Source: Candidatus Gottesmanbacteria bacterium
GTDB taxonomy: Bacteria; Patescibacteriota; Microgenomatia; 2-02-FULL-39-11
NCBI GenBank assembly: GCA_016186795.1
Contig: JACPKY010000002.1
Location: 529,044 to 593,043 of the forward strand
Direction of reading: 5' to 3'
Length of the DNA stretch: 64,000 bases
This document shows, one piece after another, positions 34,158-38,595 of this stretch. The translations under genes were made by a program, and so were the position numbers. Position 1 is the first letter of the stretch; the number at the start of each line of letters is the position of its first letter. A model generated the notes under the pieces. That model did not search any database. It was not told the origin of the DNA and saw only the letters and a list, made by a program, of their open reading frames with translations.

Positions 34158-36278
34158 TTATAATCCCAATTCACCTGATATACCTTGCATTGATGCAAGG
34201 CAGATTTCGATAAATTTATCTAGGGGTATCCCCAACGTATCTTGGCATTTTTCTATCCTTTTCCTATCAACTCCGGAAGCAAATGAGGTATTTCCCCATT
34301 TTTTCTTAACCGATTCCAAAGTTACCTGTGCCAATTTTTTATCCGGACGAACAAGAGCTGTTGCCGTTATAAGACCTGATAATTCATCGCATGTAAAGAT
34401 TGCCCAGTCGGCCCGTGTTTGTGGTTCTCTCCCTTTTCCAGTCATTTCAAAATTATGAGAAAGAATGATGGTAATGAGCTCTTTACTCACATGGCGTTTT
34501 TCCAATTCCTTGGAAAGAACAATGGTATGCGTTTTCGGATCGTTTTGCGTTTTTTCCCAGTCAGCATCATGCAGAAGTCCAACAAGTCCCCACAACTCCT
34601 CATCTTCGCCAAAGTGTTTTGCTAAAGCTCTCATTTCCGCTTCCACTGCTAACATATGTTTGACAAGATTTGGATTTTTGATCCAGTCTTTGACAAGAGT
34701 GAGAGCTTCTTCTCTTGTTATATTTAAATTTTCCGATTTGGAGGTTTTGGAAGAAAGAGTAGATTTCAGAGATTTTTTTTCTGTGCGAGGCAGGTCTTCC
34801 TTTTCTTTTTTCGAAATATGAAGTGGCCGAAGTGTAGGGAACGCAATAACGTCTTTAATGTTTTTCGCATCGGTTAGTAGCATAACAAGTCTATCAACCC
34901 CAATCCCCAATCCGCATGTTGGTGGAAACCCATGCTCAATTGCCTCAAGATAATCAGAATCAGTCTGGTGTGCTTCCTCAAAACCTGATGCTTCTCGTTT
35001 TTTTTCTTCAATAAAACGCTGTCTCAAATCAACAGGATCATTGAGTTCCGTATAATTATTGCCTAGTTCCGAACCAAAAGCGAAGAATTCAAAACGCTGT
35101 GTAAACCGTGGATCAGGACATTTTTTCGCAAGAGGCGAAACTTCAATCGGAAAATCATAAATAATAGTAGGCTGCACTAACTTTTTTTCAATCGTCTGTT
35201 CAAAAGCAAACGCCATGACCTCACCTATTGTGTGACTCTTGTCTAAGTCTTTCAGTTTCTCGGAAGGAATTTCCATCGAGTGAACCGCTTTTTTTGCTTC
35301 TTCAAGTGTATTCCATTCCAAGGGATTTACGGACGTATATTTTTGAATAGACTCAACAAGTGTATGACGCTGCCAAGGACGTTTGACATCCATCTCTATT
35401 CCTTGATAGGTAAATTTTGTCGTTTGTAAGACTTTTTGGGCAACATATTCGATGAGCTCTTCAGTAATATCCATCCCGTAAAAATAGTCCTCATATGCAA
35501 TCTGAGCTTCAAACATCGTAAACTCAGGATTATGCTCGTGGTCAACGCCTTCGTTTCTGAATACTTTGGTTATCTCGAATACTTTCTCAAATCCGCCCAC
35601 AATGAGGCGTTTGAGATACATCTCATCTGAGATTCGCAAATAAAAATCTGTATCAAGCGCATTGTGATGGGTGACAAAAGGGTGGGCAAATCCTCCGCCG
35701 TAAACAGCTTGAAGAGTGGGAGTCTCAACTTCGATAAACCCTTTTTTTGTCAGAAATTCTCGCATTGATTCAACAACTGCTCCACGTACTTTCAATGTTT
35801 CTCGTACAACAGGATTTAGGAGCATATCCAAATACCTCTTCCTGTATCGCTCCTCAATATCTTTCAGCCCATGCCATTTATCAGGAAGAGGTCTGGTGGT
35901 CTTCGTCAGAGGAGAAAATTCGTTAACCGTAATAGTAATCTCTCCGGCCTGCGTTTTCCCAACGATTCCACTTGCAGAAAGGAAATCACCAATATCAAGA
36001 AGCTCTACAATAGTAAATTTATCCTGAGGAATGATATCGGATTTAAAAAGAAGTTGGATTTTTCCGCTTTCATCAACGAGATCTCCAAAAAGTATTTTCC
36101 CGTGCCCCCGAAGTGCTATGAGTCGTCCGGCAACGGAAACACTCTCCCCATCCATTTCTCTAGCATCGGAAATTGACTGGACTCTCTGCACTTTTGAGGG
36201 ATATGGATTTACACCAAGTTTTTTTAGTCGTTCTAATTTTTTCAGCCGTTCTGCTTTTAGGTCATCAATTGTTGCCAT
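34158..36278 (-). CDS. lysS: Lysine--tRNA ligase (class II) fused to a C-terminal HD-domain hydrolase
   Basis: OB fold, FRNEG...HNPEFT, ELNDP, GLGIGVDRL; Lys/Ser-rich linker; then H...LLHDAD...H...SH...DE HD domain. Confidence 0.97.
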   Translation of the reverse strand: MATIDDLKAERLKKLERLKKLGVNPYPSKVQRVQSISDAREMDGESVSVAGRLIALRGHGKILFGDLVDESGKIQLLFKSDIIPQDKFTIVELLDIGDFLSASGIVGKTQAGEITITVNEFSPLTKTTRPLPDKWHGLKDIEERYRKRYLDMLLNPVVRETLKVRGAVVESMREFLTKKGFIEVETPTLQAVYGGGFAHPFVTHHNALDTDFYLRISDEMYLKRLIVGGFEKVFEITKVFRNEGVDHEHNPEFTMFEAQIAYEDYFYGMDITEELIEYVAQKVLQTTKFTYQGIEMDVKRPWQRHTLVESIQKYTSVNPLEWNTLEEAKKAVHSMEIPSEKLKDLDKSHTIGEVMAFAFEQTIEKKLVQPTIIYDFPIEVSPLAKKCPDPRFTQRFEFFAFGSELGNNYTELNDPVDLRQRFIEEKKREASGFEEAHQTDSDYLEAIEHGFPPTCGLGIGVDRLVMLLTDAKNIKDVIAFPTLRPLHISKKEKEDLPRTEKKSLKSTLSSKTSKSENLNITREEALTLVKDWIKNPNLVKHMLAVEAEMRALAKHFGEDEELWGLVGLLHDADWEKTQNDPKTHTIVLSKELEKRHVSKELITIILSHNFEMTGKGREPQTRADWAIFTCDELSGLITATALVRPDKKLAQVTLESVKKKWGNTSFASGVDRKRIEKCQDTLGIPLDKFIEICLASMQGISGELGL

Positions 36279-36326
36279 AAATTATTTGCTAATTATCATA
36301 TATTAATTAACTTTATTCAATAATCT

Positions 36327-37639
36327 TCAGTTCAAATCTAGTTTATTGAATACAAGGTAATCTACTACTCCTTCCAGATCAGGTATGGGATTATCAAGCC
36401 ATGTATGAGGTGCTCCTATAATCTCCTGTGCGAAACGCCTCACAACATCCGGATGCTCTATCCCCATTCTAGCAAATGCTATTGCCCACCTGTGTTCAAG
36501 ATTCCCATGCTGTAGTGCGTATTCACGGCCAAGCCGTGCTAAGTCTTTCACCAGTTCTGGATACGCATAGTGATCTTTGGTAAATCCCCAAAGATTATCT
36601 AAAAGGGAAGTAAAATGTCCTTTCCCCATTATTCCTGTAAGTCCCCCGGTAGGTAAACGATTATTTCCATTTCCATAACTTCCGTTATCCGTTGAATGGA
36701 CCCCAGATGCATCTTGTCTCATTGCTAATTGAATACGTTGCGGAAGCGATTCAGGGTCCCCATAACGAAATGAACTTCCACTTAAAAGTAGGTATGCCCT
36801 GTCAGGGACATTGATGCCAAACCGACGTGCTTCATCTAATTTCGGTCGAGTTCCGTTCCTTTCACCTGTATATCTGGGATGAACAAGTTCTGTATTTATT
36901 GCAAAACCATATGTATCAGAAAGTTCATGGATTTGCTCAACAATTGGTATCGCTAAATGATTATCATCATGCACATGAAGAAAGCACATAACTTGAGCTC
37001 TTAAAATTTCATCAAGAACATAGTAAATATTGACTCATATTGTTCTGGAGTTCCACCATTTGTTGCAGGCAGTCCTAACCCTGTAATTATGGGGCGGTCA
37101 AAACGGCTATTAATATCTGCGATTCGGCCAATAAAGCGACGTATTTCTTTGGGATCTGTTTCCGTTGCTTGTTCTAGACTTGCTCGTATATCAACTTCCT
37201 GATCGTGCGGGGCTATTGCAACTATTTGTTCTAAAATATCCCCCAATTCATCAGCAGATCGTCGACGACGACCACCGTTTTCTGATGCATTTCCATACAA
37301 ATGAAGTCTTGGCCCAATTCGAAATCCTAACGCTGCATCATCAACCGTCATCATCGTATGCTGAGCAATTTGATGGTCCACATGATTTTCTCTGCCGATT
37401 TCTAATAAACCATGGTTTAAATGCGCAGCAGTTGGTCCTGACCTGGAGTTTTGCAGTTCCATAAGCATCGTTGGGTCTTGTGGAAGATCATACTTGATGA
37501 AAGGAACTGCCCAATCAACTACCATATGACACGTTGGAGGTAAATCAAAATCACGAATGGTATACCCCTCAGGATAATACTGAGGCGTTTGCAGCCCCTC
37601 TCGAATTCCTATTGTTGATCCATTTTCTGATGCATTCAT
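36327..37639 (-). pseudogene. Orphan gene apparently split by a one-base frameshift (ORFs 37001-37639 and 36327-36989)
   Basis: The second frame is open back to 37034 and overlaps the end of the first ORF; one extra T at ~37026 would join them into ~437 aa. Confidence 0.5.
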
Positions 37640-37772
37640 ATTATTTCCACAATCCCAGTAGTACACTTACTTACTCGCAAGGTCTACGTCCTTGCCTCGC
37701 AAGAGCGTGACTACGGGATTGATCGGCTCGTAAACTCATCAAAACTTCGTTTTTCTTCGTTAACGAACCATC

Positions 37773-37799
37773 AAAAAAACCCCTCGTATGGAGGGGTTT
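37773..37799 (-). terminator. Rho-independent terminator of the putative lysS attenuator
   Basis: AAACCCCTC-CATAC-GAGGGG-TTTTTTT on the minus strand. Confidence 0.85.
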
Positions 37800-37819
37800 G
37801 TGTTCTATATTTTTATAAA

Positions 37820-37894
37820 TTATCTACGACAAACACCTCCACCAAAGGAGTTCTTCTTGCTTTCCTTTTCTATAAAAGGTGTGGTGCTATGCAT
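37820..37894 (-). CDS. Putative attenuator leader peptide MHSTTPFIEKESKKNSFGGGVCRR
   Basis: Three AAG (Lys) codons within five codons; the 3' part can pair with the terminator 5' arm. Confidence 0.7.
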   Translation of the reverse strand: MHSTTPFIEKESKKNSFGGGVCRR

Positions 37895-37925
37895 ATTTTT
37901 TATTTATCAGATCTACAAGCTAGAG

Positions 37926-38390
37926 TCAAGTGATTCTTAGAATTTTATAGATTATTTTACCAGCTGGAGCCTCCACTTCTACTTTTTCACCAACTTTTTT
38001 TCCGAGAAGCGCTTTCCCAAGTGGAGATGAGTGAGAGATTTTTTTCTCAGAAGGATTTGCTTCCCATTCACCAACAATCGTAAATTCTTCCTTCTTCCCG
38101 TCAATATGAAGCGTCACTTTGCATCCGACATCGACTTTTGATCTCGAATGTCCTGAGATTACTTGTGCATCATTGATAACTTTCTCAAGCTCGGCAATCC
38201 GGCCATCAATGAATGCCAAATCTTGTTTGGCTGCAGCATATTCGCTATTTTCTGATAAATCTCCCTGTCCACGAGCATATGCAAGCCTCGAGACAACATC
38301 AGGACGCTTCTTATTCAGAAGCTCGTCGTATTCGGTTTTCAGCTCTGCCAACCCTTCGGGGGTAAGCACCACTTTTTGTGTTTGATCCAT
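37926..38390 (-). CDS. greA: Transcription elongation factor GreA
   Basis: GDLSENSEY, IS.SSPLGKALLG. Confidence 0.98.
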   Translation of the reverse strand: MDQTQKVVLTPEGLAELKTEYDELLNKKRPDVVSRLAYARGQGDLSENSEYAAAKQDLAFIDGRIAELEKVINDAQVISGHSRSKVDVGCKVTLHIDGKKEEFTIVGEWEANPSEKKISHSSPLGKALLGKKVGEKVEVEAPAGKIIYKILRIT

Positions 38391-38518: not shown

Positions 38519-38592
38519 GCCCCCATCGTCTAGCGGCCTAGGACGGCAGGTTCTCAACTTGCAGATCAGGGGTTCGAATCCCCTTGGGGGTA
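38519..38592 (+). tRNA. tRNA-Glu (anticodon CTC), CCA not encoded
   Basis: Acceptor stem GCCCCCA/TGGGGGT, anticodon loop TT-CTC-AA, T-arm GGTTCGAATCC. Confidence 0.95.
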
Positions 38593-38595
38593 CTT

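Follow-up and report, generated by a model that had tools for sequence, protein, structure and literature searches.

A predicted lysine-sensing leader attenuator ahead of a split homocitrate-synthase-like gene and lysS in a Gottesmanbacteria genome

The window analysed here is a stretch of 64,000 nucleotides from a Candidatus Gottesmanbacteria genome. The locus under study lies on its minus strand, between greA and lysS, and its features are given below in the direction of transcription.

37926..38390, minus: greA, the upstream neighbour
37901..37929, minus: predicted promoter, with a -35 TTGACT overlapping the greA stop, a 17-nt spacer and a TG-extended, non-consensus -10
37894-37820, minus: leader uORF of 24 codons, with Lys (AAG) at codons 10, 13 and 14
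37850-37837, minus: weak protector (1:2) hairpin of 4 bp, 37850-47 with 37840-37
37790..37842 (span), minus: antiterminator (2:3), in which 37840-29 pairs 11/12 with 37801-790
37773..37799, minus: intrinsic terminator (3:4) with a U7 tail; no other minus-strand terminator was found from greA to the next gene
37651..37737, minus: long hairpin insert 3' of the terminator (37641-37745 folds at -37 kcal/mol; single copy in this genome)
37639/37666-37001, minus: N-terminal half of a homocitrate-synthase-like (HCS-like; DRE-TIM/HMGL fold) gene, the first gene under the leader
36989-36327, minus: C-terminal half of the HCS-like gene, in a different frame, with the break near 37015
36292..36320, minus: promoter-like site directly before lysS (9/12, chance level)
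34158..36278, minus: lysS, class II lysyl-tRNA synthetase with a C-terminal HD domain, the sole lysS found in this genome

The original prediction described an AAG-rich leader ORF of 24 codons, an 11/12 antiterminator pairing and a strong terminator with seven U, and all three are present. The antiterminator helix folds at -18.3 kcal/mol (z -3.7), its strength being fourth among the 65 terminators-before-genes of this genome, while terminator 37799-37777 folds at -13.9 kcal/mol (z -4.7) and is followed by seven U at 37779-73. The two helices are mutually exclusive by pairing. Folded as a whole, the leader has a z of -5.0, and none of 200 shuffles was as good. The protector hairpin claimed in the same prediction does have its 4 bp, yet taken alone it is at chance level (z -0.5; 47/200 shuffles equally good), and its role in this genome is doubtful. 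When the whole leader is folded, the minimum-energy structure has the Lys-codon stretch paired to the terminator's 3' arm and U tail.

The position of the predicted promoter would place the transcript start at or next to the uORF ATG (i.e., leaderless), and no Shine-Dalgarno sequence was seen for the uORF. A consensus promoter scan, whose rule requires a T at position 6, did not call this promoter. At gathering score, tRNAs were all that Rfam matched, both in the window and in 20 related loci. Two known regulators were rejected as candidates: a T-box leader (RF00230), which gave no gathering-score match in the window and whose core motif is missing from the leader, and a lysine riboswitch (L-box aptamer), for which the window holds no Rfam match at gathering score. 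On the other side of greA, a tRNA-Glu gene (38519-38593, plus) is divergent from it, with back-to-back 11/12 promoter-like sites (38487-38459 on the minus strand). The hairpin insert 3' of the terminator has similar stretches on many other metagenome contigs, seen as a read-depth spike, and long hairpin inserts also directly follow attenuator terminators at three other loci (L008, L037, L087); it is possibly a small mobile or REP-like repeat.

Given that the unsplit 433-aa homologue P0001 matches the first ORF at 60% identity over residues 2-204 and the second at 63% over residues 218-433, both ORFs are halves of one gene. The N-terminal half has a homocitrate synthase as its Atlas structure match (TM 0.65), the second half had no usable Atlas match, and sequence searches of Pfam, NCBIfam and PDB with either half alone returned nothing. 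For the family, the best sequence-profile match is homocitrate synthase (E 1.4e-12), and Foldseek ranks 1-8 are homocitrate synthases (PDB 2zyf, 3a9i, 6ktq). The HMGL/DRE-TIM fold and the His-x-His motif are found on P0001 and on the first half, and the family has invariant Arg-Glu, His-x-His (metal-binding) and Gly-Glu-Arg positions. Nevertheless, identity to 2zyf, 3a9i and 6ktq is just 16-19%, and the score against TIGR02146 is 24.4 bits, far under the curated cut-off of 413.55; hence the label "HCS-like" stands for fold plus context. The scores of other DRE-TIM enzymes come close to that of homocitrate synthase, and the gene is split in this genome.

As for the split, an assembly error was rejected as its cause given gapless contigs across the break from four runs of two studies, two of these runs possibly being the source of the assembly itself. 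A programmed frameshift joining the halves was not supported either: judged by eye, only one slippery-type heptamer lies close to the stop of the first half, and its frame is wrong. HCS-like homologues occur in 6/401 class genomes, this genome counted. The gene stands ahead of a lysW operon in one of them (G013), directly before a class I lysS in two (G009, G010), and in unrelated context in two more (G037, G299).

The leader had been predicted to lie upstream of lysS. This holds for the order of the genes but not for direct adjacency: the start of lysS, at 36278, is about 1.5 kb beyond the terminator, with the two ORFs of the split HCS-like gene in between. No convincing terminator was found between leader and lysS, a terminator-like site inside the second half (36811-36794) being at chance level, and promoter-like sites occur at chance frequency (6 found versus 4.9 +/- 2.1 in shuffles). 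This genome, which is 93% complete, gave no match for lysX, DAP epimerase, class I lysS (class I LysRS query) or a lysA-family gene, and its best matches to homocitrate synthase, homoaconitase and HICDH queries are those of the leu operon. In several relatives the HD protein is encoded by a separate gene next to lysS, whereas it is fused to lysS here. Elsewhere in this genome, a LysW-like zinc ribbon (G000:C1 528709-528882; L215:1468-1641) lacks the usual carrier tail and an accompanying lysX, and lies on the opposite strand between PLP-enzyme-like and MurD-like ORFs.

Because a BLASTN search of 21 family genomes with the leader gave short matches only, homologues were found by gene context. 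The leader stands straight after greA in 5 of the 30 greA loci read, this genome included, while many relatives have a plain terminator there. It is separable from the greA terminator: the two occur together at one locus (L068), and several leaders are not next to greA. Of 401 class genomes, 18 gave a lysX, and these 18 loci comprise five with the leader before lysW, one with a T-box-like leader, eleven with a divergent gene and promoter palindrome (ten of them clear matches) and one that is cut. A further 80 metagenome lysX loci added seven distinct leaders.

A set of 15 homologous leaders was analysed together; its members are kin and not independent draws. In each of the 15, a distance of 15-21 nt separates the start of the last Lys codon from the antiterminator strand; one leader (G016) has an additional Lys within the stem, which is set aside for this count. 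Lys accounts for 44 of 128 codons in the uORF frame versus 20/123 and 23/124 in the other frames, and the Lys codons alternate synonymously (AAG 27, AAA 17). Antiterminator arms pair more strongly with their own partner than with a swapped one (-16.3 versus -13.5 kcal/mol; 0/20000 permutations), with the own partner ranking 1 of 15 for this genome. Partner specificity is weak for the terminator arms (885/20000 permutations) and absent for the protector (19664/20000 permutations as good). The sequence TTGAC is found 35-42 nt before the start codon in 12/15 leaders, two of the remaining three loci being cut at the 5' side, and this spacing predicts leaderless or nearly leaderless uORFs.

The RNAalifold consensus comprises the protector and the terminator, and the C-run/G-run core of the protector is conserved. 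Classical covariation is slight (term -0.21; two-sided change in 1/9 pairs), since the cores are invariant runs of C and G. Of the conservation that the original prediction proposed to look for, Lys codons and antiterminator are kept, but covarying stems are hardly seen. The trp/pheST-type Lys-sensing geometry that it claimed is well supported by the comparative evidence, i.e., spacing, frame enrichment, partner fit and the search that follows.

A covariance model was built from the 15 leaders and searched blind to gene context. It matched 11/21 family genomes (E <= 0.1) and 23/150 class genomes (E <= 0.01). In the phylum-wide search it matched 3/150 genomes at E <= 0.001, one of them outside the class, so the leader was not found widely in the phylum genomes searched. 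With training loci, an opposite-strand self match and six weaker or opposite-strand rows excluded, 25 held-out matches remained at E <= 0.01. At least two Lys codons in the sensing stretch are present in 17 of them, where Lys makes up 59/139 codons in frame versus 23/141 and 17/145; because the model was trained on A-rich Lys leaders, these counts are partly by construction, which the neighbouring genes are not. The others comprise one gene-end false match, which was excluded, and seven without Lys codons, several of which look like Ile/Leu, His or aromatic leaders.

Sixteen of the Lys-cluster matches were extended; in ten of them, lysS follows within 4 kb in the same orientation. Between leader and lysS lie a homocitrate synthase-aconitase-dehydrogenase set or DAP epimerase, and in other cases an orphan and HDAC-family pair (three genomes), a methyltransferase-fold gene with a D-Ala-D-Ala ligase, greA, or small orphans. 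One match (L200, G074:C50) has an aspartokinase-family gene downstream and mixes Thr and Lys codons in its leader, another is followed by the orphan-HDAC pair without lysS, and in four the next gene is uncharacterised, two of these being beside a lysS that is upstream or divergent. The orphan of that pair has 333-369 aa; with its HDAC-family deacetylase it stands behind a Lys leader at four loci (L191, L196, L198, L202), before lysS in three, and the pair may possibly serve acetyl-lysine or polyamine salvage. Cassette and lysS are separated by gaps of 4-7 nt in L194, L199 and L203, which favours their co-transcription. As a target, lysS needs qualification with respect to the original claim: the first gene is the split HCS-like gene here and often a lysW-lysX-lysY operon in relatives, yet lysS is the commonest gene at the end of the cassette.

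The sensing codons also vary with the operon. Arg codons (mostly CGA) are present in the sensing stretch of 11/12 lysW-operon leaders versus 0/20 other Lys leaders, these rows being kin, and two genomes with one leader of each type (G013, G001) follow the pattern in both. The leader of this genome has no Arg codon in the stretch, and the genome has a separate arg operon along with its Lys-only leader. The five genomes with a lysW leader all have argG and gave no argJ match; each has a single argC/lysY-family gene, located in the lysW operon, and four of the five have an ornithine-transcarbamylase-family match on the argG contig. Bifunctional LysW systems are known from archaea. The Arg pattern is a strong lead that the LysW route may also make ornithine, a lead and not proof because the genomes are 75-98% complete and are kin; the Arg codons would predict a Gottesmanbacteria LysW operon that is bifunctional for Lys and Arg. 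In three lysW operons (L203:2387-3052, L204:4289-4972, L205), the last gene has a class II glutamine-amidotransferase fold where the LysK carboxypeptidase is expected, and may be a non-orthologous release enzyme.

We assign a probability of about 85% to the reading that the element is a ribosome-mediated transcription attenuator, which would sense charged tRNA-Lys and gate the HCS-like gene (split here) and probably lysS. Observed at its base are the uORF, the competing helices, the terminator, the gene order and their conservation in relatives. The transcript would start at or next to the ATG, or be supplied by greA read-through. With ample Lys-tRNA, the ribosome would run through strand 2 to the stop, the terminator would form and transcription would end at about 37773. 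With scarce Lys-tRNA, the ribosome would stall at codons 13-14, its footprint ending just 5' of strand 2, so that the antiterminator could form ahead of synthesis of the terminator's 3' arm, and RNA polymerase would read on. Given that no complete lysine pathway was found in this genome, the useful output here would be LysRS made in addition to what a possible basal lysS promoter supplies.

This mechanism was modelled by masking the RNA under the ribosome, with the transcript either cut before the terminator's 3' arm or at full length. For the cut transcript, the antiterminator has a probability of 0.75 in this genome with the ribosome at the last Lys codon and 0.00 with it at the stop, and 0.75-1.0 versus 0-0.54 across all 15 leaders; right around the last Lys codons, the masked fold gives up the antiterminator in favour of the terminator. 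In all 15, the control codons sit one footprint 5' of strand 2 (15-21 nt), and in the masking model the stop is placed to mask strand 2. At full-length equilibrium, however, the probability at the last Lys codon is 0.02-0.40 here and low in several relatives; the switch would hence need a co-transcriptional (kinetic) folding order, which we infer. The predicted coupling of stalling to antitermination, and of reaching the stop to termination, thus agrees with the cut-transcript model but is marginal at full-length equilibrium. With no ribosome on the transcript, the antiterminator prevails in this genome (0.75).

Three other explanations were weighed. The one that survives best, though we hold it unlikely, is that the Lys attenuator is real but vestigial for lysS, with control restricted to the broken HCS-like gene and a separate promoter driving lysS. 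Although the split is seen in contigs of two studies, promoter-like and terminator-like sites exist at 36320-36292 and in the second half (36811-36794), and lysX, DAP epimerase and lysA-family genes were not found in the 93%-complete genome, neither internal site exceeds chance level, the leader retains its typical, intact form, and lysS often follows the cassette closely enough in relatives to favour co-transcription. We lean towards co-regulation, probably partial, of lysS by the leader. That lysS expression tracks Lys-tRNA charging, as originally inferred, is plausible only, because of the 9/12 promoter-like site (chance level) directly before lysS.

It is improbable that the uORF senses the general translation rate or coupling rather than lysine in particular. 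Any slowing or uncoupling would affect read-through, given a weak protector and an antiterminator that prevails when no ribosome is present, yet the codons of the sensing stretch are conserved as Lys with synonymous change, and they track the target, with Arg added before lysW operons and Thr before the aspartokinase-family gene. Least probable of all is that the hairpin is a mere greA terminator, with the uORF and its purine-rich Lys codons as by-products of, e.g., strand pairing with the U tail: it is the sole terminator found after greA in this genome, the minimum-energy fold does show that pairing and many relatives have a plain terminator after greA, but in-frame Lys enrichment, fixed spacing, a predicted promoter of its own, occurrences away from greA, lysS and lysine-pathway targets found blind and a locus with both elements (L068) speak against it.

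In comparison with the classical attenuators (trpL, hisL, thrL, leuL, pheM-pheST), the predicted Lys attenuator shares a uORF with cognate codons, the 2:3 and 3:4 helices (a 1:2 helix being putative) and an intrinsic terminator. Its targets likewise include a tRNA synthetase, it is exchanged for T-boxes in some genomes, and it has multivalent versions. It differs in its effector (Lys), in having only 2-4 control codons, a weak protector and no Shine-Dalgarno sequence seen, and in matching no Rfam family at gathering score. The usual regulators of lysine genes are riboswitches, T-boxes or repressors. The lysine riboswitch and T-box leaders likewise control lysine genes or synthetases by premature termination, and T-box-like leaders stand before the same genes in sister genomes; the window, however, gave no gathering-score match to them, and in place of a T-box core motif the leader has an in-frame Lys uORF.

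A leader-peptide attenuator of the lysine (alpha-aminoadipate) gene cluster of Thermus thermophilus was reportedly described by Tsubouchi and colleagues in 2005, and to our knowledge it is the only Lys leader-peptide attenuator described. By that description, it too is a Lys-codon leader controlling transcription into homocitrate-synthase/LysW-pathway genes, although it belongs to a different phylum, and the CPR leader is predicted to be leaderless with a cassette that usually ends in lysS. Leader-peptide control of lysine genes, which the original prediction contrasted with the better-known riboswitches and T-boxes, has a precedent in this system. A His leader before hisS/hisZ in bacilli and interchange of T-boxes and leaders are covered in PMC2965389, whose main text contains none of the terms "lysS", "lysyl" and "lysine" and whose supplements may list lysS attenuators. 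The passages covered from PMC12360218, PMC3556520 and PMC12612679 contain nothing on Lys leaders. The literature covered, largely outside subscription journals, yielded no report of Lys leader attenuators or of attenuators in CPR.

The mechanism itself is already textbook (trp, his, thr, pheST), and the Lys leader in this CPR lineage is real and likely functional. We incline slightly to the broader view that a portable, leaderless Lys-attenuator module occurs through the CPR class, with codons retuned to pathway topology, and marks a lysine-starvation regulon. If true, the tuning would be Lys alone before lysS cassettes and homocitrate synthase, Lys and Arg before LysW operons also supplying ornithine, and Lys and Thr before aspartokinase. 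The regulon genes, i.e., the divergent HCS-like family, the orphan and HDAC-family deacetylase pair and small orphans, would then belong to lysine synthesis or salvage in host-dependent bacteria, and the leader would be an annotation tool that points uncharacterised genes to lysine supply. Such a class-wide family would show that tight transcription-translation coupling is kept in reduced, host-dependent cells and that leaderless uORFs are used as sensors.

Other controls occur at the same genes. An HCS-like homologue (E 5.6e-15) and a lysW (E 2.8e-7) are each preceded by a T-box-like leader whose specifier position reads AAG, both matches being below the Rfam gathering score. At L045:824-1004, L085, L115 and L119, the lysW operons are preceded by T-box-like leaders in which stem I is very short and the apparent specifier position is AAG. 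A divergent gene of about 215 aa without a Pfam match, with a conserved palindrome over its start (L009:840-1490, L043, L044, L046-L054, L061), takes the attenuator's place before lysW or the HCS-like gene; judged from its placement, gene and palindrome are a candidate Lys/Arg transcription regulator and operator. This genome has homologues of the gene at G000:C1 18685 and 295966.

This genome also has further leaders, whose cognate codons lie in the same zone before the antiterminator strand; gene names were read from translations.

G000:C1 731475, minus: Thr-rich leader before an aspartokinase-like ORF, antiterminator strength rank 1 of 65
G000:C1 168760, minus: Trp/Tyr/Phe leader before a DAHP-synthase-like ORF, rank 3 of 65
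G000:C1 630014, plus: Leu leader before leuA
G000:C1 39888, minus: Ile-rich leader before a 459-aa ORF
G000:C1 797535, minus; 788367, minus; 50158, plus: T-box-core-like motifs with terminators before argG, the his operon and a proB-like ORF, respectively
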